Source: Thermomicrobiales bacterium (GTDB lineage: Bacteria > Chloroflexota > Chloroflexia > Thermomicrobiales > CFX8). Taken from it: DNA of 64,000 nucleotides. The notes under the pieces were generated by a model. It saw only the letters and a list, made by a program, of their open reading frames with translations, was not told the DNA's origin and did no database searches. The stretch is from NCBI GenBank assembly GCA_037045155.1, contig JBAOIG010000002.1:278433-342432 (forward strand). Direction: 5' to 3'. The position numbers were made by a program, and so were the translations under genes. Shown piece after piece: positions 10,323-62,953 of the stretch. Each line of letters starts with the position of its first letter. Position 1 is the stretch's first letter.

Positions 10323-10380
10323 TCTCCGTCTCGTGACAGCCTGACACAGCCGTGATATGCTCTCTGTACGTACACGGTGA

Positions 10381-18309: not shown

Positions 18310-18549
18310 TGGCGGTGATGGCGGTGAGGGTGGCGGTGAGATCACGACGACGCCGACCCATCGCACATGCTACACTGGTGCGATCGATCAATGAATGAGC
18401 GACTCCGGGCGGTTGGCAGTCAGATGGGGTGATCCAGGCCAACGTCCGTTTGTCGTACGACCGACGCAACAGGCAGCTGGTCATGCAAGTGCCTCGCCGG
18501 GGCCAATATTGGCAATTGCATGAAGCCCCGGGAGGCGAGGGAACGCTAC

Positions 18550-19474
18550 GTGGGACGATTCATTATTGGGCGGCTACTTGCCGTTATTCCGACCCTCCTA
18601 CTAGTGTACACACTCACTTTTGTTGTCATGCACGCGACACCAGGTGGGCCGTGGGATAATTCAGAGAAGCCGCTTCCGAAAGCAGTTGTGGAAGCCATTC
18701 GGGCAAAATATAACCTGGATAAGCCGCTATGGAAGCAATATCTGTATTATTTATGGGATGTACTGCACGGTGACTTCGGTCCTTCGTTCACGAATTCATC
18801 ACAGTCCGCGTCGGATATCGTTCGGAACTTCCTGCCTGTATCAATTGCAGCTGGGCCTTGTAGCGATGCTGATCGGGATTCCGTTAGGTATTGGCCTGGG
18901 CCTGCTCGCGGCGCTCAAACAGAACACTGCCGCGGATTACACGGCTATGTTCGTGGCAGTCATCGGGATCTCAACACCGAGTTATGTCACCGCAACATTG
19001 CTCATCGTCGTGCTTTCGCTGAAGTTGCATCTCGTTCCGACGAGCGGATGGGGCGGCATCTTCAGTTCCCACATCGTCATCCCGGCTCTGGCGCTGTCGT
19101 TCGCGCCTGCCGCGTCACTTGCCCGATATACGCGCTCGGCGACGCTGGAGATCATGCGCCAGGATTACATCCGGACCGCCCGCGCTAAGGGACTCCACGG
19201 ACGCTCGATTGTCTTACGTCACGTGCTGAAGAACGCGCTTATCCCTATCGTGACAGTCGGTGGGTTGATCTTCGCCGGCATTATCACAGGTTCATTTTTC
19301 GTCGAGACCGTCGTCGGTGTGCCGGGTATTGGTCGCTATTTCGTCACTGCCGCAACCGCTCGGGACTACCCGGTTCTCATGGCGATCACGCTGCTCTTTG
19401 CCGTCATCATCATCATGATGAATCTGCTTGTCGATGTCGCCTACGCCTTCCTGGATCCACGAATCCGATTCTGA
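18550..19474 (+). pseudogene. Opp/Dpp-type ABC peptide permease (DppB-like) with one frameshift.
   Basis: The N-terminus VGRFIIGRLLAVIPTLLLVYTLTFVVMHATPGGP is in the frame of ORF 18520..19188. The rest (QLGLVAMLIGIPLGIGLG...DVAYAFLDPRIRF) is in the frame of ORF 18620..19474. The switch is at about 18841-18850 (..NFLPVSI|QLGLV..). Confidence 0.8.
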
Positions 19475-19506
19475 GGCAATGCGTTCACATTGGTGAAGGG
19501 GAAGCT

Positions 19507-20490
19507 GTGACTACGCCGGTTGCAACAGACAACAAGGCTAACGATCGGGATCACTCCCTCGCCGGAGCCTCATTTACGAACAGCCGCCAGCGCAGCCTCA
19601 CACGCGATGCCATGATTCGGCTGCGTCGCAATAAGGCGGCGGTTACCGGGCTTGCCATTATCATTATCGTTCTGCTTCTCGCGATTTTGGCCCCACTGCT
19701 CGCCCCTTATAACCCTAACAAACAGGACCTTCTCCAGACGTACGCAACACCCAGTCGGAGCCACCTGCTAGGAACAGACATCCTCGGCCGTGACATTCTC
19801 AGCCGCTTGCTGTTCGGTGCTCGTGTTTCAATGAGCGTCGCACTTGTCACAACGACCCTTGCGGTCCTGATTGGCCTACCGATCGGGCTTGCATCGGGGT
19901 TCATCGGAGGAAAGACCGACTTCATCATCATGCGGATCGTCGATGCCTTCTACGCGTTTCCTGACTTGCTCTTCATCATTATCATCTCGACATATCTGAA
20001 CGCGGCCCTTCCCCATGCGACCAGTGGGTTTCTCCTCGTACTGAAGCACGTCAACGACTTCGCAGGTGGCCTGGCCGGCGTGTTCATCGCATTGGCTCTC
20101 TTTGGCTGGCTGGGATTGAGTCGGGTCGTTCGTGGTCAGGTTCTGTCGATCCGCAACCGGGAATATGTGACATCGGCTGAATCTATTGGCGCCGGGAAGC
20201 TTCGGATCATGTTTCTCCATATCCTCCCGAACTCGTTAGCGCCGATCATCATTCTAGTTGCTCTTCTGTTGCCACAGTTCATCATCGCTGAGGCTGGACT
20301 CAGCTTCATTGGGCTTGGGGTTCAGCCGCCAAACGCAAGCTGGGGAATCATGATTTCTGAGGGTGTCCCGGCCCTGCGCGCCCATCCGCACGTGATGCTG
20401 GTTCCGGGCATTACACTTTCCATCACGCTGCTAGCTTTCAACTTCTTCGGGGACGGGCTCCGCGACGCACTTGACCCATCGATGCATTGA
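19507..20490 (+). CDS. Opp/Dpp-type ABC peptide permease (DppC-like).
   Basis: N-terminal OppC-type region (RLRRNKAAVTGLAIIIIVLLLAILAPLLAPYNP..HLLGTDILGRD) and the EAA-loop region (REYVTSAESIGAGKLRIMFLHILPN). Confidence 0.9.
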   Translation: MTTPVATDNKANDRDHSLAGASFTNSRQRSLTRDAMIRLRRNKAAVTGLAIIIIVLLLAILAPLLAPYNPNKQDLLQTYATPSRSHLLGTDILGRDILSRLLFGARVSMSVALVTTTLAVLIGLPIGLASGFIGGKTDFIIMRIVDAFYAFPDLLFIIIISTYLNAALPHATSGFLLVLKHVNDFAGGLAGVFIALALFGWLGLSRVVRGQVLSIRNREYVTSAESIGAGKLRIMFLHILPNSLAPIIILVALLLPQFIIAEAGLSFIGLGVQPPNASWGIMISEGVPALRAHPHVMLVPGITLSITLLAFNFFGDGLRDALDPSMH

Positions 20491-20630
20491 TACGGGAAGT
20501 GTGGCCGACGTGCCGTCTTTGTCATTGTCCGCCGTCGTAAGCGAGAGGAGCAGTGAGCGGACGACCTCGTAGAGCATAGAGGATGATCCCGGGGATCTGT
20601 TCACATTGTCTTTCACGAAGGAGGGGACCC

Positions 20631-22484
20631 GTGGGCACGGAATCAACTGTCTCGGAACTACTGGACGGCAAGAAAAAGCTCTCGCGCCGCAATGTGCTGC
20701 GGCTAGCAACGTTCGCCGCGGGCTCGGCCGTCGTTGGCACATTGCTGGCGGCGTGCGGCGGCAGCAGCAGCAACGATAAGGCAACCCAACCGGCTACCAG
20801 CGCCACGGCGCCTGCTTCTTCAACAGGTGCTGCGAGCGGCGGGGCCACTGCTCCTGCTGCGGCCACTACGGCAGGCGGCGCCAGCACACCGGCTGCGACC
20901 GTCGCACCACCACCGAGCGCTGGAAGTGGGCCTGATCCGGCCAAGATGGCCGCCGACCAGGTGATCCGCATCGCCAATCTCGAACCACAGAAGGTGGATC
21001 CGAACCTGACGGCGTCCGGCAACGAAGTCCAGGTGGTCATGCTTCTGTTCGATGGCCTGCTCGCGTTCGACCGCGACGCGAATGCGCTTCCGCTCTGTGC
21101 GGAAAAGTGGGAGATCTCAGCCGACGGGCTGGACTACACCTTCAAAATGCGATCGGGTGTGACATGGTCCGACGGCAGTAAGGTCACCGCGAAGGATTTC
21201 GAGTACTCGTTCAAGCGACTGGTTGATCCGGTGCTGGCATCGGAATACGCCCAGTCTGCGTTTCCCATCACGGGCGCTGAGGACTTCTTTAGCGGCAAGA
21301 GCACCGACGCCTCGACGATCGGTGTGTCGGCGGTCGACGAATCCACGCTTACGCTCAAGATGACAGGCCCAGCCGCGTATTTCCTTGCCGTCCTGGCTAC
21401 GTGGAACTTCATGCCGATTCCGAAGGCCGCAGTCGACAAGTTCGCCGAGAAATGGGTCGAGGCCGGAAATATTGTCACAAACGGGATGTACACGATGACA
21501 TCCTGGAAGCACGACCAGAGCATCGTGCTCGATATCAACAAGGACTACTGGGGTGAGAAGCCGTACCTGACGAGGGTTGAATACGTCATCACCCCCGATC
21601 CGTCCGCGACGAGCGTGGCGGCCTTCGAGAACAACGAGCTGGACGTGACCTACCCGGTGCCGGCCGGTGATGTGGACCGCATCCGTGGCGACGCGAAGCT
21701 GGGTCCACAATTCATCAAGTTCCTCGCGTCTGGGTCAACCTTCATCCTGTACGACTGTGCCAACAAGAACTCGCCGGCGAGCAACCCGGACGTCCGCAAT
21801 GCCATGTATCTGGCGATCGACCGCGAGAAGTTGGTCAGCGCAGGACTGAAGAATCTCTATGACCCAGCACCGCTGATGACGCCCCCGGGCATCAAGGGTC
21901 GCAACGAAGCCGCCATCCCGAAGGGCGGACCGGACGAGGCACGAAAGCTCCTCGAAAAGGCCGGCTATCCCGGAGGCAAAGGCTTCCCCAGCATGACACT
22001 GACCTGGCCGGTAAATCCGAATTACGACCTGGCAGCCCAGATCATCCAGCAGATGTGGAAGGACGAGCTGGGGATCGATGTCACACTTCAGCGGATGGAG
22101 GCAAAGGCACACCGTGCGTTCTTCGGATCGCTGAGCGACGAAAATATCCACTACGATTTCTATATCTGGGGCTGGGGCTCTGACTACGAAGACCCGTATA
22201 ACTGGTTCAATCTCCTCTGGGAGTCGAGTCAGGACTTCTATCGCACGCGCTGGAAGAACGATCAGTACGACAAGCTCGTGCAAGATGCTGCCGTCGAGCT
22301 CGACACCGACAAGCGCACCAAGCTCTATGAGCAGTCTGAAGTCATCCTGATGCAGGACATGCCAGTTGTCCCGCTCCATTACGCCGCGAACAACTTCCTG
22401 GTGCGTTCGACGGTGAAGGACATGGTATGGCGGCGCGTGGCCAACGAGCGCTTCCTGCACAAGGTTTGGATCTCCAAGGAATAA
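20631..22484 (+). CDS. ABC transporter substrate-binding lipoprotein, family 5 (peptide/nickel).
   Basis: GAAGGAGGGG RBS before GTG 20631. Tat-like motif SRRNVLRLA plus lipobox LLAACGG, then a Ser/Ala/Thr-rich linker. The body is typical of SBP_bac_5 (VTWSDG..VTAKDFEYSF.., YDFYIWGWGSDYEDP). Confidence 0.85.
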   Translation: MGTESTVSELLDGKKKLSRRNVLRLATFAAGSAVVGTLLAACGGSSSNDKATQPATSATAPASSTGAASGGATAPAAATTAGGASTPAATVAPPPSAGSGPDPAKMAADQVIRIANLEPQKVDPNLTASGNEVQVVMLLFDGLLAFDRDANALPLCAEKWEISADGLDYTFKMRSGVTWSDGSKVTAKDFEYSFKRLVDPVLASEYAQSAFPITGAEDFFSGKSTDASTIGVSAVDESTLTLKMTGPAAYFLAVLATWNFMPIPKAAVDKFAEKWVEAGNIVTNGMYTMTSWKHDQSIVLDINKDYWGEKPYLTRVEYVITPDPSATSVAAFENNELDVTYPVPAGDVDRIRGDAKLGPQFIKFLASGSTFILYDCANKNSPASNPDVRNAMYLAIDREKLVSAGLKNLYDPAPLMTPPGIKGRNEAAIPKGGPDEARKLLEKAGYPGGKGFPSMTLTWPVNPNYDLAAQIIQQMWKDELGIDVTLQRMEAKAHRAFFGSLSDENIHYDFYIWGWGSDYEDPYNWFNLLWESSQDFYRTRWKNDQYDKLVQDAAVELDTDKRTKLYEQSEVILMQDMPVVPLHYAANNFLVRSTVKDMVWRRVANERFLHKVWISKE

Positions 22485-22495
22485 GCGATCAGAAG

Positions 22496-22528
22496 CTCGG
22501 TCCCCCAAGCCTGGCTTGGGGGACCGAG
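22496..22528 (+). terminator. Perfect 15-bp stem-loop between the binding-protein gene and the peptidase genes.
   Basis: CTCGGTCCCCCAAGC-ctg-GCTTGGGGGACCGAG. No U-tract follows. It sits directly upstream of the GAGGAGGAGGGG RBS of the next gene. Confidence 0.5.
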
Positions 22529-22544
22529 CCTCTGAGGAGGAGGG

Positions 22545-23606
22545 GTGATGACAGAGCGCATCGACCGCGTGCGCGGGTTGCTTGCCGAGCGCGGCTATGA
22601 CGGGCTGATCGTCAGTAAGCCAGCCAACATCCGGTATCTTACCGGCGCAACCGGCACGGCAGCCGAACTGCTGGTAACCGCGAACGACCTGTTGTTGCTG
22701 AACAGCTTCGTGGATATCACCGAGAACGGTGAGACCGCGCCGGACGTGCCACAAGCAACCCGGACGAACTCAGCCGCGGACATGGCCACGGCGGTACATT
22801 CACGCGGACTCCAGCGGGTAGGGATCGAGACGCACCATCTGTCCCACGACACCTACATCACCTATCAGCAGTCGCTGGATGGGGTCGAGTTGTGTTCATC
22901 CGGAGGGATGGTCGAGGATCTGCGGGCCGTCAAGGATGAGGGCGAGATCGATCTGATCCAGCAGGGTATGCAGGTAAACGATCTCGGCGTTCAGTATGTC
23001 AGGGACCATGCTCGGGAAGGAATGACCGAGTTCGAGCTTGGTGTCGGGCTCGAGACTGCCATGCGTGAGGCGGGCGCCGACGGACTGGGCTTTCTCATTG
23101 TGCAGTTTGGCGAGAACGCCGCCAAGCCACACCATCGCTTCAGCCAGCGTGCGCTGAGGCAGGGCGACTTCATCCTCATCGACATCGGCGCTCTCCACCA
23201 GGGATATGGCTCTGACACAACGAGAACGCTCGTATTCGGTGAGCCGACCGAGCGCCAGCGCGCCGTCTATGAAGCGGTGCATCGCGCTCAGGCAGCAGCC
23301 CTTTCCGCTGTCCGTGCAGGAGTAACTGGCGAGAGTGTGCATCAGGCCTCGGCGGACGTGATCCGAGAGGCGGGGTACGCGGCCTACTACGGCCACGGTG
23401 TTGGCCACGCGATCAACGAGGGGCCACGCCTCGCGCCATCATCGACCGACATCCTTCGTCCGGGACACGTCGTCACGATCGAGCCGGGCATCTACATCGC
23501 CGAGTGGGGAGGGGTCCGCGTCGAAGACACGGTCGTTGTGACTGAGGGCGGATATCGAAATCTGGCGCGGTTCCCGAAGGACCTTACGATCATCTCAGCG
23601 CGATAA
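22545..23606 (+). CDS. M24-family Xaa-Pro peptidase (PepQ/PepP-like).
   Basis: Creatinase-like N-terminal domain plus the M24B core (DFILIDIGALHQGYGSDTTRT, GHGVGHAINEGP, EPGIY..GGVRVEDT). Confidence 0.85.
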   Translation: MMTERIDRVRGLLAERGYDGLIVSKPANIRYLTGATGTAAELLVTANDLLLLNSFVDITENGETAPDVPQATRTNSAADMATAVHSRGLQRVGIETHHLSHDTYITYQQSLDGVELCSSGGMVEDLRAVKDEGEIDLIQQGMQVNDLGVQYVRDHAREGMTEFELGVGLETAMREAGADGLGFLIVQFGENAAKPHHRFSQRALRQGDFILIDIGALHQGYGSDTTRTLVFGEPTERQRAVYEAVHRAQAAALSAVRAGVTGESVHQASADVIREAGYAAYYGHGVGHAINEGPRLAPSSTDILRPGHVVTIEPGIYIAEWGGVRVEDTVVVTEGGYRNLARFPKDLTIISAR

Positions 23607-23802
23607 TCCTCACACAGACCCGCTCACGTCGATTCCGTAGCAGGATCGGGGTGGGCGGGCTAGCGTGACGTGCGTAAGCAGCGCAGAGTGGATAGTGGTC
23701 TGAGATTGACGTCGGTCGCTGGGTCCCGACTGACACGACGATCCCCATCGGGGCCCAGCGACTGATGGGCGTCGCCTTGCGAACTTAGGAAGGTGGTACA
23801 TC

Positions 23803-24891
23803 ATGATTTCAGGTCGCGTTGAACGCGTAGCCAAGGAGCTTGCCCGCCGGGAGCTCGACGCCATTATCGTGACGGAGCCAACCAGCCGGTACTACCTGAC
23901 GGGCTGGAAGATGGACGATACGCAGGTCGGGGAGTTGGCATACTGGGTGCTGGCCGGTCCCGATAGCCTGACGATCCTGACCGGGCAGAATAACCTGTCC
24001 GAGGCGATCGAGGCAGCGCCAGGATCGAAGATCATCGGGATCGCACCTCAGGACCGTGGCAAGAACGCATCGATGATCGCGGCGCTCATTCAGGAGGCCG
24101 GCTACAAGCGCGTCGGTATCGACGATGTGCATCTGGGCGCCAACTACTATCTCCAACTCACCGAGTCGCTTCCTCCTCACATCGAACTGACGCCAGCCGC
24201 AGATCTCATCCGCACGGTTCGAGCGGTGAAAGAGCCGGGCGAGATTGAGCTACTGCGCGAAGCGATCCGGCTGACGGACGAGGCTTACATGGCGCTGCGC
24301 GAGTGGATTACCGCGGGGACGACCGAGAAGCAGGTGGCGTGGTTCCTGGAGCGACACATGCGTGATCGCGGCGCCGACGGCATCGGCTTCGGGACGATCG
24401 TCGCGGCTGGGCCGGCCGGCGCGGTGCCACACCATGAGCCGACCGACCGGCCGATTGAGGCGGGAGAACCGGTGGTTCTCGACTTCGGAGGAACCTACGA
24501 AGGCTACACGGCCGATCTCACACGGACATTCTGTATTGGTGAGCCACGCGATCAGCAACTCATCGACATCCACACGGCGGTGCTCGCGTCACTCACCAGA
24601 GGGATGGCGGCCCTGCGCGCCGGGGATCGCTGCGACGGACCTACGGCAGTGGCCACCCATGAGGTGGAAAGTCGGGGGTTTACCGTGAGCCATCCGGGCG
24701 GGCACGGGATCGGACTTCAGATCCACGAGCTTCCCAGTGGCCCGATGGTCCTCCGGGAGAACATGGTGATGACATTCGAGCCGGCAGTCTATATTGACGG
24801 CTGGGGCGGGGTTCGGATCGAGGACAACGTCCTGATCACGGCAGATGGTCCAGTCGTTCTCACAATGAGCCCGCATGACCTCGTCATCTGA
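23803..24891 (+). CDS. Second M24-family Xaa-Pro peptidase.
   Basis: AGGAAGGTGG RBS. Motifs VVLDFGGTYEGYTADLTRT, GHGIGLQIHELP and EPAVY..GGVRIEDN. Confidence 0.85.
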   Translation: MISGRVERVAKELARRELDAIIVTEPTSRYYLTGWKMDDTQVGELAYWVLAGPDSLTILTGQNNLSEAIEAAPGSKIIGIAPQDRGKNASMIAALIQEAGYKRVGIDDVHLGANYYLQLTESLPPHIELTPAADLIRTVRAVKEPGEIELLREAIRLTDEAYMALREWITAGTTEKQVAWFLERHMRDRGADGIGFGTIVAAGPAGAVPHHEPTDRPIEAGEPVVLDFGGTYEGYTADLTRTFCIGEPRDQQLIDIHTAVLASLTRGMAALRAGDRCDGPTAVATHEVESRGFTVSHPGGHGIGLQIHELPSGPMVLRENMVMTFEPAVYIDGWGGVRIEDNVLITADGPVVLTMSPHDLVI

Positions 24892-24936
24892 GGACTTGTA
24901 CGGCAATTGAGCAAGAAAGGCTGGCTGGAGATCCGG

Positions 24937-26973
24937 ATGAATGCCACCAAGCACACGATTGAGGCTCGCGATCTCTATCATCTCGAAATTGCCCATACGG
25001 TCGCAGTCTCACCAGATGGACAATGGGCAGCGTTCACCGTGTTGCGGCCGGACGAAGCAACTAACCGTAATCAGTACGATCTCCTGATCGTCCCAGTTGA
25101 CGGCACGGGCAGCCCTCAACCGCTGGTGCAGGGTGGTTCGCACGATCCGGCGCCATCCTGGTCGCTGTGCAGCCAGCATCTCGCCTACCTTGCCGATCAC
25201 GAGGGCGTGATACAGGTCTGGACCATCGAGCGAGCGAGCGGAAAGACGCGACGCGTCACTCATAGCACCGTCAATGTCAGCAATCCGCTCTGGTCACCGG
25301 ATAGCGCTCACATTGCCTGGGTTGCCAGCGTCCCGTCCGTTGCTGCGCCTGCCGGCCCGACGGGTGGCAGCGACCTCGGCGGCCAGCCACGGGTGATCCT
25401 CCGTGCGCGCTACAAGTTCGACGGCATGGGCTGGTTTGGCCAGTCACGCAGCCAGCTGTTTGTCTCCACACTCGACATGCCGGAAGCCAACGCGCGACAA
25501 CTGACGTACGAACCGGCTGGAATCTCTCAGCCGATCTGGGCGGCAGAACGAGGCACGTCGATCGGAGGGCCAGCATGGTCGCCGAATGGGTCGCAGCTCG
25601 CGTACACCACCAGCACGAATGAAGACGAAGAGCTGGACAGCCGGTGCGATGTCTGGACGGTCGATATCGCTACCGGTGATCGAACCAGGATCACTCCAAA
25701 TGACGGCCTGTACGGATGTCCCGCCTGGTCTCCGGATGGCACGCGACTGGCGGTCGTCGGCGCACGACTGCCGAAGCGTGGAGGCTCGAACTCTCTCATA
25801 TGGACCGTGCCGGCCGGCGGCGGTGAGTTGACCCTAGCGAGCCAGGCAGATATCTGCGCCGGCGCGCTTCTGTTGGCCGACGCGGGCGCGCCGACACGCG
25901 TACAGCCACAATGGATCGGCGACTGGATCTACTTCAGCGCCGGATTCGAGGGAACTGTCCAGATCTTCCGCACGCCTTCGGCCGGTGGCCAGCCGGAGAT
26001 GGTAACGACCCAGCAACACGCGCTCGGGAGTTGGTCGATCGATCGAGGCGGCACAACGCTCGTGTACGCCGCGACGACAGCCTCCAGCCCCGGCCAGGTG
26101 TTCTGCCAACGGCTGGATACTCTCGAGGCGCCTCATCCATTAACGGCACTCAACTACGAGATACTGTCGACTGTGGCGCTTGCCGAGCCTGAGTCATTCT
26201 GGACAACATCAACTGATGGATCCGAAACCCGAGTTCAGGGCTGGATACTGAAGCCCCCTGACTTTGATGAGACGAAGACATATCCGCTCATCCTCCAGGT
26301 CCACGGTGGGCCACACTGCGCCTATGGCGCAAGCTGGTATCTTGAGTTTCAGTATCTCGTGGCGCACGGATACGTCATTGTCTTCTCCAACCCACGCGGG
26401 TCCAGCAACTACGGTGAGGAGTTTGCGACCAGCATCTACCTTGACTGGGGCGTCAAACCGATGGCCGACGTGCTCGCCGCGCTGGACTACGCCATTGATC
26501 ATGTTGCCATCGATCCAGAGCGGATTTATGTGGCCGGCGGGTCATATGGCGGATATCTGGTCAACTGGATCGTGACTCATACCGATCGTTTCCGAGCGGC
26601 AGTGACGGGACGCTGCGTCTCCGACCTTCAGACGCTGGCGCTCGCCAGCGACAACGGGACTCTCTGGATGGCGGAGTACTTCGGCGGGATGCCCTGGGAG
26701 ATGCCGGAGGTATATGAATCTGGCTCGCCAATCCGCCACATCGCCAACGCTGTGACTCCGCTCCTCATCGAGCATCAGGAGCAGGACATGCGCTGCACGA
26801 TGGATCAGGCCGAGCAGATGTACAACGCGCTTCGGTTCCTGGGCGTCGAGACGGAGATGGTGATCTATCCCGGGGAATCCCACGGGATGAGCCGGGGCGG
26901 CCGGCCGAGTCACCGCGTTGATCGACTGGAACGCATCCTCGACTGGTTCGAGCGACACGGGGGATCTGGTTGA
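24937..26973 (+). CDS. S9-family serine peptidase (prolyl oligopeptidase/acylaminoacyl-peptidase type) with an N-terminal TolB-like propeller.
   Basis: Repeated (S/A)WSPDG motifs in the N-terminal half. The C-terminal alpha/beta fold has the nucleophile motif GGSYGGY. The ORF also opens at TTG 24907. Confidence 0.85.
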   Translation: MNATKHTIEARDLYHLEIAHTVAVSPDGQWAAFTVLRPDEATNRNQYDLLIVPVDGTGSPQPLVQGGSHDPAPSWSLCSQHLAYLADHEGVIQVWTIERASGKTRRVTHSTVNVSNPLWSPDSAHIAWVASVPSVAAPAGPTGGSDLGGQPRVILRARYKFDGMGWFGQSRSQLFVSTLDMPEANARQLTYEPAGISQPIWAAERGTSIGGPAWSPNGSQLAYTTSTNEDEELDSRCDVWTVDIATGDRTRITPNDGLYGCPAWSPDGTRLAVVGARLPKRGGSNSLIWTVPAGGGELTLASQADICAGALLLADAGAPTRVQPQWIGDWIYFSAGFEGTVQIFRTPSAGGQPEMVTTQQHALGSWSIDRGGTTLVYAATTASSPGQVFCQRLDTLEAPHPLTALNYEILSTVALAEPESFWTTSTDGSETRVQGWILKPPDFDETKTYPLILQVHGGPHCAYGASWYLEFQYLVAHGYVIVFSNPRGSSNYGEEFATSIYLDWGVKPMADVLAALDYAIDHVAIDPERIYVAGGSYGGYLVNWIVTHTDRFRAAVTGRCVSDLQTLALASDNGTLWMAEYFGGMPWEMPEVYESGSPIRHIANAVTPLLIEHQEQDMRCTMDQAEQMYNALRFLGVETEMVIYPGESHGMSRGGRPSHRVDRLERILDWFERHGGSG

Positions 26974-27076
26974 TCGTGATCCCTATGCCCCACATACCGC
27001 GTCCCTCGGTTACAATGCAGACGACGCACGGCTCGGTGGTCGCGGGACGACAGGCGGAAGACAGGGGTGGGAGTCG

Positions 27077-39120: not shown

Positions 39121-40362
39121 TCAGCGCTCCTCGGGAGGGCGGACGGACTTGAACATCGCCAGCAGCAGCAGGTCGTAGGTGGCCTTGAGCGAGCCGGCGA
39201 TAACCAGTGGCCAGCCGAACGGCGAGATCGAAAGCAGCCAGCCGGAGATTAGCGGGCTGGCGGATGAAGCCAGGCTGCGCGGCACTGCCGTCACGCTGGC
39301 GGCTGCCGGCCGTTCGGCCGGCGTCACGACCGCCATGACGTAGGAGTTACGCGTCGGCACATCCATCTGCGACAGCAGGCTGCGGGCCAGGAGTAGCGCG
39401 ATCGCCAGGCCGAGGCTGGGCATGAACGGCACGAGGATGAGGAAGATATTGGCCGGCAGATGGCTGAAGACCATCGTGTTCACCAGCCCTATCCGCCGCG
39501 AGAGCCAGGCGGCGACCGGATAGGACACCGCCGAGAACAGCCCCGTCCAGAAAAAGATCGTTGCGGTCGTCGCGATCGACAGATCGAAGCGTTGGAACAG
39601 CCAGAGCGCCAGCAGCGACTGCACAACGAAGCCGCTGCCGAAGGTGTCGAGGCTGAAGAGCGCGGCCAGGGTATAGACGATGCGCTTCGACTCGCGCAGC
39701 GGGACCGGCGGCTGATCGGCCGGCGGCTCGATCGCCGGGGAGAGATGGCGGTAGAACGCCATTGCCACGAGCGCGATGACGGCGTAGACGAGAAACATCC
39801 CCTCCAGCGCCTGACGGAGCGAGAGCGATGATTCACGCGCGATCAGCGCCGGAGTTCCGGCCGCAAGCGCACCGACCGCGCCAGCCAGCGAGGCGACCAG
39901 TCCGTAGCGGGCGAAGAGGGATGTGCGCTCGCGGTCGTCGACAGTCTGCGGCAGAAGCGTCTGCTCCAGCGGCAGGAAGACGCTGACATCGCCAGCCGAG
40001 GGGTTGAGCGTGCCGAGGAAGGCGACCAGCACAAGCGGCCAGAAGGAGTGCACCGTTGCGAAGGCAACGCCGGTGGCGGCCATCAGCATCGCCGCGCCGA
40101 GTAGCAGGCTGCGCCGGCGCAAGCGGTAGGCGACGAGCCCGATCAGCAGCGTCAGCGCCGCCGAGCCAAGCAGCGTCGCGGTCGAGATCGCGCCGACCCG
40201 AAATTCTGAGAACCCCAGCGTCAGCAGGTAGACCGGCAACAAGACGCTGATGAAGCCATCGGCGAACGCCCGCACGCCGCGCGCCAACACCAGCAGTGTC
40301 GCGTCGGACGTCGCTGATGCCGGGACAAGTCCGATGGACCGCCGCTCCAGCCGCCCTGCCAC
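39121..40362 (-). CDS. MFS transporter (12 TM).
   Basis: Hydrophobic repeat architecture with the loop motif LVAYRLRRRS. The 609-aa ORF extends upstream into non-protein-like sequence. GTG 40362 (VAGRLERRSIGLVPA..) is my preferred start. Confidence 0.7.
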   Translation of the reverse strand: MAGRLERRSIGLVPASATSDATLLVLARGVRAFADGFISVLLPVYLLTLGFSEFRVGAISTATLLGSAALTLLIGLVAYRLRRRSLLLGAAMLMAATGVAFATVHSFWPLVLVAFLGTLNPSAGDVSVFLPLEQTLLPQTVDDRERTSLFARYGLVASLAGAVGALAAGTPALIARESSLSLRQALEGMFLVYAVIALVAMAFYRHLSPAIEPPADQPPVPLRESKRIVYTLAALFSLDTFGSGFVVQSLLALWLFQRFDLSIATTATIFFWTGLFSAVSYPVAAWLSRRIGLVNTMVFSHLPANIFLILVPFMPSLGLAIALLLARSLLSQMDVPTRNSYVMAVVTPAERPAAASVTAVPRSLASSASPLISGWLLSISPFGWPLVIAGSLKATYDLLLLAMFKSVRPPEER

Positions 40363-40440
40363 CCAGCCCCTTTCCCATCGTCCCAGTCCAGTTGGTACTG
40401 TTCCGGCATGATACAAGACCGGGAAGGGAGGAGCGAAGCG

Positions 40441-41982
40441 ATGCGGATACGAGCATATCGATGGCCCTGGCTGGTGGCGCTCGCTGCGCTGCTGGCGATT
40501 GTCGCGCTGCCGGCCGCGACATTGGCAGCCGACTTCGGCCAGCCGGTTCCCGGGCAGCGCGTCTACGACCGGGCCGGGGCGCTGACGGCAGACGAGGTTG
40601 CGCGGATCGAGGAGCGGGCCGCCGCAGTCGAAGCCGCTGGCTCGCCGGTCGTCGTCTTCCTGCAGGCGCGCGATGCGGACTACGACAAGACCGTCGCCGA
40701 CGGCCGCGATCTGATGGAAGCGTGGGACATCCAGTCCGCGCCGGACGCTCGCAACGGCATCGTCATCTTCTTCAACCTCAAGCCGGGCGACCTGCAGCAT
40801 GGCGACTACGCCGTGATCGCCGGCAGGTCGCTGGTTGATGGCAATCTGCCGCGGTATGAGCTGAACCGGATCGCCGACGATATGCAGCCGGTGCTGAAAG
40901 GCGGCGACATCACCGGGGCGACCATCCTGGCGCTGGATGCGATCGAACACAACCTCTCATTCGGCCCGCCCCCGCCGCCGCCGCCCAGCGCTGCCAGGGA
41001 GTTCGCCGACGCTGTCGCCGGAGGTCCGCTAAGCATCCTGAACATCATCGGCATCGTTGCCAGCGCCGTGGCTGGCTGGTTCCTCGCGCATCGTATCCCG
41101 ACGCGGCGGCTGTCGAACGCGCCGGTCGAGCCGGCAACGACACCGCCAACCGACCTGTCGCCAGCGCTGGCCGGCTCGCTGGTGGCAGGTTCGGTCTCCG
41201 ACACCGCAATAGGCGCAACGCTGCTCGATCTGACCGCCCGCGGCGGACTGGCGATCGAGCCGGTGGGCAAGAAGAAGATTCAGATCCGGCTCGTCGACGA
41301 GTCGGTCATCCAGCCGGGCTACGAGCGGATGATCTGGGATGCGCTGGCCAGCCAGGCAGACCCGGCCGGCACGATCGGAACCAAGCAGCTCGGCAAAGTA
41401 CGCAAGTCGTGGGGCGGCATCCGCAAGGCAATCCGCGCCGAGCTGATCGCCCGCGGCTGGTTCGCCTCGGACACCAGCGCGCAGCGCCAGCCGTTCTGGA
41501 TCACCGGAACGATCCTCTATACCCTGACGCTCATTGCCGTCGTGCTTGCTATCGTCGCCGAGAGCCCCTGGGTGTTGATCGGCTTCGTCCCGCTTGGGAT
41601 GATCGGGACACTCGCGCTCGTCCTCTCGGCAATCATCCCGAATACGACGCTGGAGGGGGACAAGGTGGCTGCGCCGTGGCGCGGCTACCAACGTTACCTG
41701 CGTTTGGCCGGAAAGAACCCACAGGTGGATATCGACCTCGACACTGCCGTGCCCTACGCGCTGGCGCTCAGCGCCGGGCAGTCGTTCAGCAAGCGGCTGG
41801 AGCATGCCAGCGCGGCCGGCTATCTCCCCGCATGGATGGGGGGACCAGCGGCCAGCGGCGCATACTCCAATGGCTTTTTTCCCTACTGGGTCGCCTTCAA
41901 CAGCAGCGTCGCGCCGTCAGGTGGCGGGGCCGGGGCGACCGGGGCGTCGGCTGGCAGCGGCGCGGCCGGCGGCAGCTTCTAA
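40441..41982 (+). CDS. TPM-domain plus DUF2207-type membrane protein.
   Basis: GGGAAGGGAGGAG RBS. Signal sequence, then the TPM pattern RVYDRAGALTADEVARIEERAAAVEAAGSPVVVFLQ. Poly-Pro linker, TM helices, and a glycine-rich tail SGGGAGATGASAGSGAAGGSF typical of DUF2207 proteins. Confidence 0.65.
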   Translation: MRIRAYRWPWLVALAALLAIVALPAATLAADFGQPVPGQRVYDRAGALTADEVARIEERAAAVEAAGSPVVVFLQARDADYDKTVADGRDLMEAWDIQSAPDARNGIVIFFNLKPGDLQHGDYAVIAGRSLVDGNLPRYELNRIADDMQPVLKGGDITGATILALDAIEHNLSFGPPPPPPPSAAREFADAVAGGPLSILNIIGIVASAVAGWFLAHRIPTRRLSNAPVEPATTPPTDLSPALAGSLVAGSVSDTAIGATLLDLTARGGLAIEPVGKKKIQIRLVDESVIQPGYERMIWDALASQADPAGTIGTKQLGKVRKSWGGIRKAIRAELIARGWFASDTSAQRQPFWITGTILYTLTLIAVVLAIVAESPWVLIGFVPLGMIGTLALVLSAIIPNTTLEGDKVAAPWRGYQRYLRLAGKNPQVDIDLDTAVPYALALSAGQSFSKRLEHASAAGYLPAWMGGPAASGAYSNGFFPYWVAFNSSVAPSGGGAGATGASAGSGAAGGSF

Positions 41983-42225: not shown

Positions 42226-43752
42226 ATGTGCGTCATGCCCGTGATCGAACGATATGCGCGCCACTGGTCCCGTCGTCCCAGATGGGTCGCGGCCTCCCTC
42301 ATCGGCACTGCGCTCCTGACACTCGCAATCGCCCAACTGGCGATCCTCTCCGCGGCCGCCGACGCACCGGCGACAGCGGCGTTCCAGCGCACCTGGGCAC
42401 GCACCGACCAGCCCGTTACCAGCGGTCAGGCCAACCGCACATGGATGTGGGGACCGAGCGCCAACACCGGCCCGCTCCAGGAACCCTACGCCGACGCCCC
42501 CGGTGGCGTCCGCACCGTCCAGTACTTCGATAAGTCCCGCATGGAGGACAACTCCTGGCGCGCCACTGCCCCGTGGGATGTCACCAACGGCCTCCTCGTC
42601 GTCGAGATGGTCACCGGGCAGATGCAGGTCGGCGATACCCAGTTCCAGCCCCTCGCCCCCGCCGTCGTTAACATCGCTGGCGACCCGGGCGAGCATCCCA
42701 CCTACGCCGACATCAACACGTTCAACCTCCAGTCTCAGCCGGCCACTCCAGTCGGCACGGTCCTCACAACCTGGATGGACGCCACCGGCATCCTCCCCAG
42801 TGGCCCGACACCACCTTCCGCCGTCACCGCCGCCGAGCGACTGACCGTCACCGGCATCGACCACACGGTGGCCTCGGTGTTCTGGACGTTCATGAACTCC
42901 TCCGGCACGGTCTTCGAGAACGGGCAGTACGTGCAGGGGCCGCTGTTCGAGAACCCGTACTACGCCACGGGGTATCCGATCACCGAGGCGTACTGGTCGA
43001 CGGTGAAGATCGGCGGGACGCCGCAGACAGTGCTCTGGCAGTGCTTCCAGCGGCGCTGCCTGACCTACAACCCGGCGAATGGCCCGGGCTGGCAGGTCGA
43101 GGCCGGCAACGTCGGCCAGCACTACTACCAGTGGCGCACCGCGTCGACCCCCATCGAGCCAACGCCAACGAGCACGACAGTTCCGGGGCAGCCGACGATG
43201 ACACCGACGCCAACCAATACGGTGGCGCCGGGTCAGCCGACGAACACTGTCGCCCCAGCGACCAAGACCACAGTGCCAGCAACCAAGACTACGGCGCCAG
43301 CGACGAGCACCACAGTACCCGCGACAAGCACCACCGTGCCAGCGACGAGCACCACCGTCCCAGCCACAAGCACGACACCGCCACAGCAGAGCTATCTCAG
43401 TGTCAAGGTCGTTGATAAGGACGGCAAGAGCCAACTTCCTGCTGGCGTAGTCGTCACATCCAACACGCTCACCGCCTACCAGCAGGCTGGGGGTGACGTC
43501 GCAGGCCAGGCTTGTAACGGCACGCAAGTGGGAACGTTCACACTGAACACGACAACCTTCACAGCGTCGAAGGTGATGCCACCCGGCAACTACTGTGTCG
43601 AGCTGTCGGCCCAGGGGTACCTCGACTTCGGCGGAACGAGATACTCTGGCAGCCTGTTCTCCAGCGGCCTCGGGACAGTGACGCTGGGAAATCCAGCCGG
43701 CAACACGAATGTCACGATCAAGGTCACGATGGACAACGTCAAGGTCAATTAG
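42226..43752 (+). CDS. Secreted protein of unknown function (paralog of 55625..56845) with a Thr/Pro linker and a C-terminal beta-sandwich-like domain.
   Basis: N-terminal TM/signal sequence. The ~290-aa core shares long identical strings with 55625..56845 (VQYFDKSRME, TNGLLVVEMV, VNIAGDP, PTYADINTF, GIDHTVASVFW, PITEAYWS, VLWQCF.RRCLT, GNVGQHY). It is followed by 6 x 7-aa ATxTTxP repeats. Confidence 0.7.
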   Translation: MCVMPVIERYARHWSRRPRWVAASLIGTALLTLAIAQLAILSAAADAPATAAFQRTWARTDQPVTSGQANRTWMWGPSANTGPLQEPYADAPGGVRTVQYFDKSRMEDNSWRATAPWDVTNGLLVVEMVTGQMQVGDTQFQPLAPAVVNIAGDPGEHPTYADINTFNLQSQPATPVGTVLTTWMDATGILPSGPTPPSAVTAAERLTVTGIDHTVASVFWTFMNSSGTVFENGQYVQGPLFENPYYATGYPITEAYWSTVKIGGTPQTVLWQCFQRRCLTYNPANGPGWQVEAGNVGQHYYQWRTASTPIEPTPTSTTVPGQPTMTPTPTNTVAPGQPTNTVAPATKTTVPATKTTAPATSTTVPATSTTVPATSTTVPATSTTPPQQSYLSVKVVDKDGKSQLPAGVVVTSNTLTAYQQAGGDVAGQACNGTQVGTFTLNTTTFTASKVMPPGNYCVELSAQGYLDFGGTRYSGSLFSSGLGTVTLGNPAGNTNVTIKVTMDNVKVN

Positions 43753-55624: not shown

Positions 55625-56845
55625 ATGTCACGAACCGCCAGCGCGAGCCGAGCTATCGGTCTGTTAGTGGTTCTTGTAGCAGTATCCATCCCACTCAGCA
55701 TCGCGACCAACGTCTCCGCATCGGGACGGGAGCCTGGTGCGTCGCTGACGCTGACGCCAGACTCCGGCAGTTGCGACACGGCGGTGATGGCTACAGGAGG
55801 CGGGTTTATCACGGGGACAACGGTCACGATCTTCGCTGGCCCGACGCCGGGTGATGAATTCGGCGTTGTTGCTCGGGCTTTGGTCGCCGCCGACGGTCGT
55901 TTCTCCGCCCCAGTATCCACAGAGATGTTCCTGCCAGGCTGCCGTGGCGGGGCAATGCCCACTACGAGCGGCCAGCGCTACATGGTCGGAGCTATGACCG
56001 GGAAGGGGCCGAAGGAGGGCGACGACTGGCGCGAGCCGGCCGCGCAGGCGATCTTCACGCGCACGTTCTCCTCTGCTGACTACTTCCGGCTGATCTGGCA
56101 ACGGACGGACCTCGCAGTCGCCAACGGTGCGAGCGACGAGACGTGGACGTGGGGTCCGACGCCACTGACGAAAGTGTTCCAGGAGCGCTACGACGACAGC
56201 CCTGGCGATAAGCGCAACGTCCAGTACTTCGACAAGAGCCGGATGGAGATCAACAACCCGGCCGGCGATACGGACTCGATCTGGTACGTAACCAACGGCC
56301 TGCTGGTCGTCGAGATGGTCGAGGGCTGGTATCAGACCGGCGACGATACGTTCGACAAGTCCCCCGATCCGGCCGAGGTCAACATCGCTGGCGACCCGAC
56401 CGGCGCCGACGGCATCGGGCCAACGTACGCCGACATCAACACCTTCGGTCTGCGCGCCAAGCCGGCCGCGGTGGTTGGGACCGCGATCACCAGCCGCATC
56501 AACGGCGTGGGCACGATCACGGCCGATAAGGCATTGGCGACGCACGGCGTCACCGGCGCACACCGCGTCACCATGCCGGGTATCGACCACACAGTGGCGT
56601 CCGTCTTCTGGAACCGGATGGTTGCGATCGGGGCGGACTACGACAACAACGCGTATTATGTGACGGGCCTACCGATCACCGAGGCGTACTGGTCGGCGGT
56701 GGCGGTCGATGGCACGACGCACGACGTCCTCTGGCAGTGCTTCGAGCGCCGTTGCCTGACCTTCACGCCGGACAACGACGCCCAGTGGCAGGTCGAGATG
56801 GGCAACGTCGGCCAACACTACCACCGCTGGCGCTACGGCGATTAG
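55625..56845 (+). CDS. Secreted protein of unknown function, paralog of 42226..43752.
   Basis: AAGGAGG RBS and a signal sequence. It shares the core listed for 42226..43752 but lacks the Thr/Pro linker and C-terminal domain. It has a different ~130-aa N-terminal domain. Confidence 0.7.
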   Translation: MSRTASASRAIGLLVVLVAVSIPLSIATNVSASGREPGASLTLTPDSGSCDTAVMATGGGFITGTTVTIFAGPTPGDEFGVVARALVAADGRFSAPVSTEMFLPGCRGGAMPTTSGQRYMVGAMTGKGPKEGDDWREPAAQAIFTRTFSSADYFRLIWQRTDLAVANGASDETWTWGPTPLTKVFQERYDDSPGDKRNVQYFDKSRMEINNPAGDTDSIWYVTNGLLVVEMVEGWYQTGDDTFDKSPDPAEVNIAGDPTGADGIGPTYADINTFGLRAKPAAVVGTAITSRINGVGTITADKALATHGVTGAHRVTMPGIDHTVASVFWNRMVAIGADYDNNAYYVTGLPITEAYWSAVAVDGTTHDVLWQCFERRCLTFTPDNDAQWQVEMGNVGQHYHRWRYGD

Positions 56846-59955: not shown

Positions 59956-60058
59956 GCTCTGGCTCTCCTTCTCGCCGATAGTATATTGACAGTGAATGGT
60001 ACTCGGGCGCACACTAGTTCGGCATTATTTCGCATCGCCTGGTTTGGAGCACGACGGA

Positions 60059-61561
60059 ATGGGACGAGCGACACAAGAGGCAGGATCGACATCGGCGGAG
60101 GGCAGCGCCAGTGAGGAGTCGGTCAGTCCACGCTCGATCCTCATCTTCGCCATTGTCTCGCTCGCGCTGCTGATGTCCAGTATCGACTCCACAATCGTCG
60201 CCGTCGCCCTGCCGAACATGATGAAGGGGCTGAACACAAACCTGATCTGGATCTCCTGGGTCATCACTGGCTACAGCCTGACCCAGACGGTGATGATGCC
60301 AATGGCCGGCAAGCTGAGCGATGATTTCGGGCGCAAGCGGCTGTTCCTCGGTTGTGTCGTTCTGTTTACCGCCAGCTCGCTGCTCTGTGCGATCGCGCCG
60401 ACCGTCCAGCTGCTGATCCTGTTTCGTGTGCTGCAGGCAGTCGGGGGCGGGGCGTTTCTGCCCTCGGCGGCCGGCATCGTCAGCGACGTCTTCAGCCCCA
60501 GACATCGCGGCACGGCGATCGGGCTGTTCACCAGCGTCTTCCCGCTGGGCGGCATTATCGGGCCGAACGTCGGGGGCTGGATGATCGACAACTTCGGCTG
60601 GCGCTCGATCTTCTCGGTGAACGTGCCAATCGGCGTCGTTCTGTTTGCCACCGGCATCGTCTTCCTGCCGGCCGGCGGGCGGATCACTGGCCGGCGCAGC
60701 ATCGACCTCATCGGCGCGGGCGCATTCGCCACCGGCGTGGTAGCCCTGATGTACGGCATGAGCGTCTGGGGCACCAACGTCAGCTTCGAGTGGCAAGTTG
60801 CGGCGTGGATGGTGGCTGGCATCGTCGCGCTGGTTCTGTTCGTCCGTCACGAAGCGCGAACCAAAGATCCGATGATCGACCTGCGGCTGCTGAAGCAGCG
60901 CGCCTTCGTCGCCGCGAACCTCTACAACTTTCTCTATGGCGGACTGGTGTTCGGCTTCTTCAGCTTCATCCCACTCTACGCAACCCTCGAATACGGTATG
61001 ACGGCCAGCCAGGCCGGATTCATCCTGACCCCGCGAGCAATCGCGATGATCAGCCTGTCAGCGATCTCGTCATTCCTGCTCATCCGCTTCGGCTATCGCA
61101 TCCCGATGATCCTCGGCATCACCCTGATCAGTATCGGTCTGTTCGTGACCGGCCGAGGGATTCACGACCCGACGATCTTCGGCTACCACGTCAGCAACCT
61201 GGTGTTCCTCTCGATCACGATCGCGATCACCGGTCTGGGCGTCGGCATCGGCGGTCCTGCCGCGAACAACGCCGCCCTCGATCTGATGCCCGACGCGGTT
61301 GCGCGGATCACGGGCTTGCGTGGCATGTTCCGCTCCAGTGGTGGCGTCCTTGGCACAGCCGCGATCGTTCTTGCCCTGGCTCACTTCGATGACCAGGGTC
61401 GCGGGCTGGAGGTGATCTTCACCGCGCTATCGTTCCTGATCCTGTTGATCATCCCGGTTGTCTTCCTGATCCCCGACACCGCGCGGAATCGTCGCAAGGC
61501 TCATGGGAGGGCGGAGAGTCAGGCCGGCCAGGTTCAGGTGCAGATGGCAAACGATGACTGA
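60059..61561 (+). CDS. MFS drug/H+ antiporter, DHA2 (EmrB/QacA, 14-TM) type.
   Basis: LMSSIDSTIVAVALPNM, GKLSDDFGRKR (motif A) and LQAVGGGAFLP motifs. About 14 hydrophobic segments. Confidence 0.85.
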   Translation: MGRATQEAGSTSAEGSASEESVSPRSILIFAIVSLALLMSSIDSTIVAVALPNMMKGLNTNLIWISWVITGYSLTQTVMMPMAGKLSDDFGRKRLFLGCVVLFTASSLLCAIAPTVQLLILFRVLQAVGGGAFLPSAAGIVSDVFSPRHRGTAIGLFTSVFPLGGIIGPNVGGWMIDNFGWRSIFSVNVPIGVVLFATGIVFLPAGGRITGRRSIDLIGAGAFATGVVALMYGMSVWGTNVSFEWQVAAWMVAGIVALVLFVRHEARTKDPMIDLRLLKQRAFVAANLYNFLYGGLVFGFFSFIPLYATLEYGMTASQAGFILTPRAIAMISLSAISSFLLIRFGYRIPMILGITLISIGLFVTGRGIHDPTIFGYHVSNLVFLSITIAITGLGVGIGGPAANNAALDLMPDAVARITGLRGMFRSSGGVLGTAAIVLALAHFDDQGRGLEVIFTALSFLILLIIPVVFLIPDTARNRRKAHGRAESQAGQVQVQMANDD

Positions 61562-61568
61562 CAAGCTC

Positions 61569-61873
61569 AGTGGATATATATCCTCATTGTTGTATGAGGT
61601 TATAGTCGTTATCAGTAGGGGTTGTGGATTGTGTGGATAACTGCCGGGAGCCGCACCGGGACGGCTGAAACAGGCGGGACAGCCCGTCGGAGAACTCGTC
61701 CACATCTCCCCAGCCGGCGGCAGTGACTGATCTGTCACCGGCCGGCCATCCGCAGAGCCGGCCCGTTTGTCCACCATTGCCCCCGGCAACTATCAACGCC
61801 AACCCCCTGTACGTACACAGCGATTGACGGTATTGTCCACAGTCATCCACATTCCGGCATCAGGTTATCCACA
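61569..61873. other. DnaA-box cluster with an adjacent AT-rich tract (candidate oriC, or datA/DARS-like DnaA-binding locus).
   Basis: Perfect boxes: TGTGGATAA at 61632-61640 and TTATCCACA at 61865-61873. One-mismatch boxes: TTGTCCACA at 61833-61841 and TCATCCACA at 61843-61851. Two-mismatch boxes at 61569-61577, 61623-61631, 61696-61704 and 61767-61775. AT-rich tract at 61571-61615. Confidence 0.55.
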
Positions 61874-61951
61874 TCGGGCAGTGTCTGGGGATCGTGGAAC
61901 GGGGGGAGTTGACTGGCAGTCAGTCGGGGGGACGGGCGTTGCCGGGCAACA

Positions 61952-62368
61952 TCAGGCGGGGCTAGCTGACCCAGCCGGATTGTCGCCAGCGAGGTGAAGC
62001 GCGGCGTTGATGCTGATGATCAATATGTCGATATCGAATGGCTTCTCGATAATGCCGTCGGACAGAAGGTCCGCGATCGTCTCGAGGAGGATGAAGCCGG
62101 CCGACATCGCGATCACCGGGATGGCGGATGTCCGCGGGTCGGCTTTCAGCTCGCGCACGGCGTCAATCCCATTCATCACCGGCATCATCAGATCCATCAG
62201 GATCAGCGATGGCGGGTTATCGTGGACCATGCGGAGCGCCTCCTGGCCGTTCGAAGCGGTCTGTGGCGCGAACCCCTCGTCCTCCAGTAGCGCCTCTAGG
62301 GCGGACCGGATCGTTGGGTCATCATCGACAATCAAGATATGCGACGCGATAGTAGTGTCACTTTTCAC
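61952..62368 (-). CDS. Stand-alone CheY-like response regulator receiver protein.
   Basis: ILIVDDD, LILMDLMMPVMNG, PVIAMSA and KPF motifs. No output domain. Confidence 0.85.
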   Translation of the reverse strand: MKSDTTIASHILIVDDDPTIRSALEALLEDEGFAPQTASNGQEALRMVHDNPPSLILMDLMMPVMNGIDAVRELKADPRTSAIPVIAMSAGFILLETIADLLSDGIIEKPFDIDILIISINAALHLAGDNPAGSASPA

Positions 62369-62550
62369 GTAACGGAACGACTACTGTCTCATCTGCTCCA
62401 TCACATGGAACAGCGACATCCGGCCCCCACCACGGGACATCGCAGGGTGGATCGCAAGAAGCAGGCCAGCCGTCGTTCGACACACGCATTCGCCGAACGT
62501 GTACGATCGGGGGAACGTTGATTGTTCGACCTGTCGTTGTTGGGGGGTAG

Positions 62551-62796
62551 GTGACAACACTGAACGGGATCGGGGCTCCGCTGCTGGCCGCGAGCGCGCC
62601 GGGATGGCTCGTATCGGCGGTGATCGTTGTCATCGCGATCATCCTGGCGATTACGACCGTGGTGCTGATGCTGATTCGCCCGCGAACAGTCGAGGCCGGC
62701 GACGATGGCGTCGTCCGGCGGACGGTCGATCCGATGCTGATACTGTCGGCGCTGGTCGTCGTTGCGCTGGCAATCGCTGCCTGGCTGTTGCGCTGA
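62551..62796 (+). CDS. Small two-helix membrane protein.
   Basis: GGGGGG lies before GTG 62551. Hydrophobic helices WLVSAVIVVIAIILAITTVVLML and MLILSALVVVALAIAAWLL. Confidence 0.4.
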   Translation: MTTLNGIGAPLLAASAPGWLVSAVIVVIAIILAITTVVLMLIRPRTVEAGDDGVVRRTVDPMLILSALVVVALAIAAWLLR

Positions 62797-62953
62797 CGCG
62801 ATACTGGCGCTGGTGGCACGCAACATGCTCTACAAGATAGCGACGACGGTGCCCCCACGCCGGCGTCCGGGATCCGAATGGATCTTGACGCACACATCCT
62901 CCTACCCCATCACCCCTCCCGAGGCGGCCCTCTTCAAGGGCCGTCTCACCTTT

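Follow-up and report, generated by a model that had tools for sequence, protein, structure and literature searches.

A probable DnaA-dependent replication origin located away from dnaA in a Thermomicrobiales bacterium

What does a dense cluster of DnaA boxes do between the ends of two convergent genes that are not origin genes? The question is raised by a 64,000-nucleotide stretch of an uncultured Thermomicrobiales bacterium (GCA_037045155.1, contig JBAOIG010000002.1, positions 278,433 to 342,432), here called the window, whose coordinates are used throughout. The gap in question (61562-61951, 390 bp) runs from the stop of a major facilitator superfamily (MFS) transporter gene to the stop of a gene for a CheY-like response regulator. 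We predict that it is probably a DnaA-dependent, oriC-type origin of replication with a standard unwinding module, unlinked from dnaA. That the gap is a functional DnaA-binding element is supported by its conservation in three lineages, which is focused on the boxes. DnaA binding, unwinding and initiation, and the replicon that is served, we infer from the DNA sequence.

The DnaA-box cluster and its conservation

DnaA boxes were counted at up to one or up to two mismatches per 400-bp bin, with 300 first-order Markov simulations as the null. Allowing up to two mismatches, the bin 61551-61950 has nine boxes, of which two are perfect, and the runner-up bin of the window has four. With at most one mismatch allowed there are nine boxes in the window, and four of these fall inside 242 bp of the gap. 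The simulations reach at most two boxes at the stricter threshold and five at the looser one, and none of the 300 reaches nine. The cluster far exceeds chance, as had been argued in a first-pass annotation of this DNA, which judged that an AT-rich 9-mer should not recur in this way. The perfect, one-mismatch and two-mismatch boxes that it listed are all present where it placed them, and its four two-mismatch boxes are joined by a fifth, at 61578, that it overlooked. The only repeats found in the gap are the DnaA boxes, and there are no other iterons. From left to right we predict the following parts.

61569..61586, no strand: a pair of weak, abutting boxes that face opposite ways, AGTGGATAT / ATATCCTCA, with two mismatches each, inside the AT-rich tract
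61573..61613, no strand: AT-rich tract, a candidate DNA-unwinding element and the least stable 41-mer of the window
61601..61618, plus strand: DnaA-trio-like array TAT AGT CGT TAT CAG TAG, recognised by the rule for basal unwinding systems (BUS, below) and by conservation
61619..61622, no strand: G-rich 4-bp spacer GGGT, recognised by comparison with dnaA-linked origins
61623..61631, minus strand: weaker DnaA box TGTGGATTG, two mismatches, abutting the perfect box; invariant in five of five aligned sequences
61632..61640, minus strand: perfect DnaA box TGTGGATAA, invariant in relatives; the first trio is 13 bp away
61696..61704, plus strand: DnaA box TCGTCCACA, two mismatches, within the conserved block GTCCACAT.TCCCCAGC
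61724..61737, no strand: palindrome TGAC-N6-GTCA (TGACTGATCTGTCA), identically placed in all copies of the element, rare elsewhere
61767..61775, plus strand: DnaA box TTGTCCACC, two mismatches; locus L001 reads TTATCCACC there
61808..61817, no strand: perfect palindrome TGTACGTACA, within the invariant block TGTACGTACACA
61833..61841, plus strand: DnaA box TTGTCCACA, one mismatch
61843..61851, plus strand: DnaA box TCATCCACA, one mismatch, 10 bp after the box at 61833
61865..61873, plus strand: perfect DnaA box TTATCCACA, 22 bp after the box at 61843; GTTATCCACATCG is invariant in relatives
61910..61922, no strand: palindrome TGACTGGCAGTCA (TGAC-N5-GTCA; TGACTG-N-CAGTCA), in all copies of the element

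The five boxes to the right of the pair (61696, 61767, 61833, 61843 and 61865) all point opposite to the pair, the weak box at 61578 being set aside. In the sibling strains L010 and L011 the box at 61843 is perfect (TTATCCACA).

The left edge of the gap is formed by the most AT-rich DNA of the window, as the earlier reading had it, and the most AT-rich 45-mer is 61573-61617 (GC 0.31). The nearest-neighbour free energy (dG) of 61573-61613 is -45.6, which is 4.5 standard deviations above the mean of all 41-mers of the window (-64.0, standard deviation 4.1). This tract ends 9 bp short of the weaker box at 61623 and overlaps the distal trios. A predicted easily melted AT-rich element therefore adjoins the boxes. 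Its AT-richness is kept in the related loci L001 and L013, with the conserved blocks GTGGA and TATC(C/T)TCAT, and the weak boxes within it are partly kept (TTATCTTCA in L001, CTATCCTCA in L013). A CCTCAT/ATGAGG inverted repeat that had been pointed out in the tract is not kept in the relatives (five-sequence alignment).

Orthologous loci were collected via the response regulator; the alignment comprises five sequences, and columns were counted over three independent lineages. In the sibling strains L010, L011, L012, L037 and L142 the element immediately follows the stop of the response-regulator gene. It is also present in L001, L049, L088 and L114 and in L013, L014, L016 and L017, in which the CheY protein is 70-78% identical to that of the window. 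In the boxes 66 of 81 columns are invariant, compared with 151 of 309 in the rest of the gap (Fisher p = 8e-8), and the strong boxes reach 41 of 45. The four-fold sites of the gene adjoining the element have just 48-54% pairwise identity. Such invariance next to diverged four-fold sites points to purifying selection centred on the DnaA boxes. The trio block is conserved to the same degree as the boxes: 17 of the 22 columns of 61601-61622 are invariant, and the block TAGTCGTTATC[A/C]GTAG[G/A]GG[T/C], directly left of the box pair, is near-invariant across the three lineages. A search of the plasmid collection gave no homologue of the gap or of the locus. The CheY homologue of Sphaerobacter thermophilus, 50% identical, has unrelated surroundings in which no boxes occur.

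Every lineage keeps the three palindromes inside the element, and they hardly occur in the rest of the loci, with a second copy of TGTACGTACA in the window at 10365. Dimeric regulators of the origin may bind them, and they are offered as candidates for such a role.

The response regulator is syntenic with the element in all element-bearing lineages. The gene on the far side varies: it is an MFS gene in the window and L001 and a MarR gene in L013, and others occur at this place in L015 and L020. The MFS gene is not beside the element in L013 and L016. Since the far flank differs between lineages, the element appears to be functionally tied to neither neighbour, and the site to be a rearrangement-prone junction.

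Two observations concern this junction. In L001 (7200-7450) about 250 bp that cannot be aligned to the short junction of the window lie between the MFS stop and the element, beside the AT-rich tract, and are bounded by a long inverted repeat, GTAGGGGCGTATCGCATACGCCCG ... CGGGCGTATGCGATACGCCCTAC; this segment looks like a small mobile or repetitive extragenic palindromic (REP)-like insertion. In L020 (10500-11460), from a lineage without the element, the equivalent gap is about 970 bp long and contains the short direct repeats AGCTGTTAGCAATCAGCCATTAGCC / GCTAACAGCTATTGGCTAACAGCTAACGGC.

Likeness to origin unwinding modules

BUS, which was defined in Bacillus subtilis and has been predicted for 85% of 2070 species, consists of a DnaA-box pair, a spacer, DnaA-trios and AT-rich DNA (PMC6669920; PMC8287927). 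By the published rule a box lies at most 16 bp from at least three NAN trios, usually as one of a tandem box pair in which the better match is the box farther from the trios. The spacer length peaks at 10-13 bp, with 13 bp the commonest, and the trio next to the box is most often 3'-GAT-5' (TAG) (PMC8287927).

In the window, L012 and L001 we find an arrangement of this kind, with the trios TAT CAG TAG and a spacer of 13. The trios nearest the boxes (TAT, CAG and TAG, 61610-61618) have the middle A that the rule demands (PMC8287927). The element shares with BUS origins the order and orientation of the parts, a better box farther from the trios with the second box abutting it, a 4-bp G-rich spacer, a distance of 13 bp from the strong box to the first trio, a first trio TAG (3'-GAT-5') and an AT-rich tract beyond the trios. 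It also shares with many dnaA-dnaN origins from metagenomes an identical 18-mer box pair.

We defined a strict grammar as a strong box, an abutting box, a spacer of 3-5 bp, TAG or TAA as first trio, and three NAN trios. The window has one such site, and 60 simulations gave none. As a control in metagenomes, loci with the 18-mer box pair TGTGGATTGTGTGGATAA were gathered, an 18-mer that was itself chosen from the window; there are at least 120 of them. Among the matches listed, to which the counts here refer, dnaA and/or dnaN are present in 35 of these loci (local tblastn). Runs of TAG trios and a G-rich 4-bp spacer stand directly upstream of the 18-mer in many of the loci, and GGGT matches in length and character the GGGC, GTGC and GGCC spacers found upstream of the same 18-mer in dnaA-linked origins. 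The strict grammar is found in 23 of the loci: 18 lie beside dnaA or dnaN, four are homologues of our element, and the remaining one is on a 1.3-kb contig, too short to judge. Outside the Thermomicrobiales lineage, the strict grammar is thus a signature of canonical origins among the matches listed.

Among the same matches, the 18-mer recurs at the dnaA-dnaN origins of many unrelated, mostly actinobacterial-looking genomes (loci L022-L141), with a TAG-rich trio run upstream that often includes TAGTCGT. The DnaA proteins of these loci look actinobacterial, having a proline-rich domain II. The recurrence of the 18-mer suggests that a near-identical unwinding module is very widespread.

We propose that DnaA would bind the abutting box pair, perfect at 61632-61640 and weaker at 61623-61631, and would oligomerise leftwards from this pair, over the GGGT spacer and onto the TAG-CAG-TAT trios. 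It may then melt the adjoining AT-rich tract (approximately 61573-61613), as in the BUS of B. subtilis and others. The oppositely pointing boxes on the right (61696-61873) could hold a second DnaA assembly facing the first, like the two halves of Escherichia coli oriC, and the palindromes at 61724, 61808 and 61910 would be possible regulator sites.

The oriC of E. coli is 245 bp long, between gidA and mioC and 42 kb from dnaA. Our element is likewise unlinked from dnaA, and has an AT-rich element on the left followed by a box in the TGTGGATAA orientation (as R1). Inverted boxes at the far end (as R4) would give two opposed DnaA assemblies, and such an opposition of box arrays is known from E. 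coli oriC (PMC5742627). It differs in having neither 13-mer repeats nor GATC clusters and just two boxes on the unwinding side, and there is no sequence homology beyond the boxes.

Alternative readings and the replicon served

Several observations weigh against an origin at this place. The published BUS rule in its loose form is unspecific: 13 sites of the window pass it, and simulations average 4.7. The trio array is short, with only three in-register NAN trios as against 5-11 in good examples of BUS origins. In L013 and L016 the middle trio is CCG (TAT CCG TAG), which breaks the rule of three NAN trios and leaves two. Our element is not beside dnaA or dnaN, and it sits between convergent gene ends. 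Over 64 kb on the left side and 13 kb on the right, where the genes have accessory functions only, none of dnaA, dnaN, gyrB, parAB, rep and parS was found, and tblastn queries with DnaA and DnaN gave no match in the window or in any Thermomicrobiales locus. The element is not in L015 (CheY 64% identical) or in L020 and L021 (68%), which retain the MFS_3, small-membrane-protein and CheY genes. There is no switch in GC skew (window and L011): its value is +0.008 for the 61.5 kb on the left and +0.011 for the 10 kb on the right. In L001 and L013, too, the sign of the skew stays the same on both sides of the element.

The skew weighs little as evidence against an origin, because the window as a whole has a replication-like skew component of only 0.009, or 0.017 at third positions. 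Gene orientation had been raised as counter-evidence in the first-pass annotation, in that most genes to the left are on the plus strand and point at the site; 26 of 44 genes do so, an excess without statistical significance (binomial p = 0.29). Both skew and orientation lack power at this site. The position between two gene ends had also been called non-canonical. It is true that dnaA and dnaN are not nearby, but this is less odd than it seemed: in Thermomicrobium roseum dnaN, dnaA, gyrA, gyrB, spo0J and gidA are dispersed and the origins were set by skew (PMC2615216), so the absence of dnaA near the element counts as normal for the order.

Instead of an origin, the gap could be a DnaA-binding locus that tunes initiation elsewhere, by titration or by nucleotide hydrolysis or exchange. 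Models for such a locus are datA or the DnaA-reactivating sequences (DARS) of E. coli, the six extra DnaA-box clusters of B. subtilis and the Streptomyces box cluster. We regard this as rather unlikely. The element has in common with datA, DARS1/DARS2 and the B. subtilis clusters that it is a conserved, intergenic, non-coding DnaA-box cluster away from dnaA, and loci of this kind are known (PMC5742627; PMC3245932). A dense cluster between two gene ends, in a range of 64 kb and 13 kb without origin-linked genes and without a skew switch, would suit such a role, and lineages that have the same neighbour genes and lack the element indicate that it is dispensable at this position.

The layout argues otherwise. 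The minimal datA has three essential boxes in the same direction and an IHF site and promotes hydrolysis of DnaA-ATP, and the DARS core has three close boxes with fixed spacing, box I being opposite to II and III (PMC5742627). Both are defined without an unwinding element or trios, whereas our element has an origin-type unwinding module in which the best box pair lies at the modal 13 bp from TAG-type trios that abut the least stable DNA of the window. Boxes in the same direction like those of datA are present (61833, 61843 and 61865), with no sequence homology to datA. The strong opposed boxes 61632 and 61696 have starts 64 bp apart and are separated by 55 bp, and the sole abutting opposed pair, 61569/61578, is weak. 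The trio block is conserved like the boxes, and a pure titration site would not need trios. The first-pass annotation had ranked an origin and a datA/DARS-like locus as equals; a DnaA-binding element is supported, and the ranking tilts to an origin because the BUS layout was found, among the matches listed from unrelated metagenome loci, almost only at origins linked to dnaA or dnaN.

It is unlikely that the full module of boxes, trios and AT-rich DNA serves as something other than the primary chromosomal origin, either as the origin of a large secondary replicon that lacks an own initiator and is fired by the chromosomal DnaA, or as a second origin-like locus next to a canonical origin on one chromosome. 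The 77 kb of purely accessory genes, with no origin-linked gene or parS and no skew switch, are compatible with this. Were it so, a complete unwinding module would here be used outside the primary origin, a rare situation. Most likely it is an ordinary type of origin that is merely away from dnaA.

We think it quite improbable that the gap is a displaced or auxiliary origin, that is, a former oriC or a weaker second origin that acts mainly as a DnaA sink and fires rarely or never. The far flank that varies in every lineage, marking a rearrangement hot spot, and the short trio array, degraded in L013 and L016, would agree with such a history, but the strong conservation of boxes, spacer and trio block in three lineages indicates a present function and not decay.

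An origin of a plasmid, integrated element or secondary replicon with its own initiator, for which the DnaA boxes would be accessory, is highly improbable. The genes of the window are accessory only and no tRNA is among them, and large second replicons are known in Thermomicrobiales (PMC2615216). Against this, the surrounding DNA (64 kb on the left, 13 kb on the right) has no rep, par, integrase or transfer gene, and there are no iterons besides the DnaA boxes.

The T. roseum megaplasmid (NC_011961.1) also speaks against it. We read this replicon over 1-330 kb and 701-918 kb (547 of 918 kb), a part that includes its skew switch, and found no DnaA-box cluster and no perfect box. Few window proteins have close homologues on it. 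The megaplasmid was rejected as a model for the element on these two grounds, and with no box cluster in the 547 kb there is no precedent in the order for a DnaA-box origin on a second replicon. Its skew in 10-kb bins is about -0.06 to -0.17 across most of 701-871 kb, reaching a size of 0.1 or more where strong, and the ParA/ParB genes at 745.4-747.2 kb are far from the switch.

Near 875-885 kb of the megaplasmid (loci L151 and L019, about 871-891 kb) the skew goes from about -0.1 to about 0/+0.04. This switch lies 35-40 kb before position 1, which the genome paper chose as origin. The paralogues at 42226-43752 and 55625-56845 of the window are 52-56% identical to a megaplasmid 'thermonuclease family protein' (720.8-722.4 kb) and are the sole strong nucleotide-level link between the window and the megaplasmid.

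The main chromosome is more likely than a secondary replicon to carry the element, since no plasmid-type initiator or partition gene is near and the part of the megaplasmid that was read has no such cluster; the all-accessory context gives some weight to a second replicon.

Finally, we give hardly any credence to a role of the boxes in regulating a neighbour gene, a small RNA or a peptide, or to the gap being a structured RNA: DnaA doubles as a transcription factor (PMC5742627) and the gap is conserved, but both flanking genes end at the gap, so that neither promoter falls inside, a scan of the gap gave neither promoter-like nor terminator-like sites (the lack of a terminator had been stated in the first-pass annotation), there is no Rfam match, no conserved RNA fold emerges (RNAalifold covariation term +4.24, unfavourable), and indels that are not multiples of three break every open reading frame (ORF) of the gap between lineages.

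If the gap is the origin we predict, it bears on a group whose origins are unsettled. In T. roseum the markers are dispersed, and the origin predicted by DoriC/Ori-Finder (ORI92730242, at about 1.7777 Mb) is about 230 kb from the skew-based start of the genome paper. Only one box, of the TTTTCCACA type, belongs to that prediction, and its BUS score of 4 is weak. The T. roseum prediction resembles our element in coming from the same order and in placing the origin away from the usual marker genes, and differs in that the element described here is much clearer. For Thermomicrobiales and related Chloroflexota the conserved origin-type module is a concrete sequence for tests with the cognate DnaA. 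It may also be used as a template for locating origins in related genomes, as an aid to annotating the origins of Thermomicrobiales, and as an anchor for growth-rate estimates from metagenome read depth.

Flanking genes and wider gene content

The two genes that end at the gap are those named in the first-pass annotation, with stops at 61561 and 61952 (Pfam).

59996..61561, plus strand: MFS transporter gene (Pfam MFS_1), the left flank, outside the element
61952..62368, minus strand: gene for a single-domain, CheY-like response regulator (Pfam Response_reg), the right flank

The MFS protein of the window has an 84% identical relative in L001, a Thermomicrobiales metagenome-assembled genome. 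The response regulator matches the NCBI protein MEI2616352.1 at 100% identity, which comes from a Thermomicrobiales metagenome-assembled genome and is encoded on a contig of 638,194 bp. On the right, a 179-aa ORF at 62358-62897 (minus strand) was rejected as a gene; it is of low complexity and poorly conserved. The conserved gene at that spot encodes an 81-aa membrane protein with two hydrophobic helices (62551-62796, plus strand); every related locus has it, placed between the response regulator and MFS_3. The MFS_3 gene lies at the end of the window and might be taken as truncated, a view we rejected, as the gene just continues past the window edge.

The accessory genes near the element encode peptidases, ABC and MFS transporters, aminotransferases, a two-component pair, HSP20, MscS and a PLD-SNF2 helicase. 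The region 18000-27000 has a lower GC content (0.58-0.63, compared with about 0.66) and contains genes for a peptide ABC transporter, two M24 prolidase-like proteins and an S9 peptidase; possibly the region is a peptide-utilisation island gained by horizontal transfer.

The ORFs 39121-40950 (minus strand) and 40408-41982 (plus strand) overlap by more than 500 bp on opposite strands, and both have good codon-position GC. Their Pfam matches are MFS_1, at residues 221-520, and TPM/DUF2207. The 5' part of the MFS ORF is probably non-coding.

About 10 kb to the right of the element (L142 10001-15189, L011 1-2973) a gene encodes a PLD-nuclease/SNF2 helicase of 1122 aa, and the next gene, which overlaps it, exceeds 608 aa. 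Proteins of many phyla, archaea included, are approximately 60% identical to the helicase, and the two genes are probably a horizontally spread defence-type pair.

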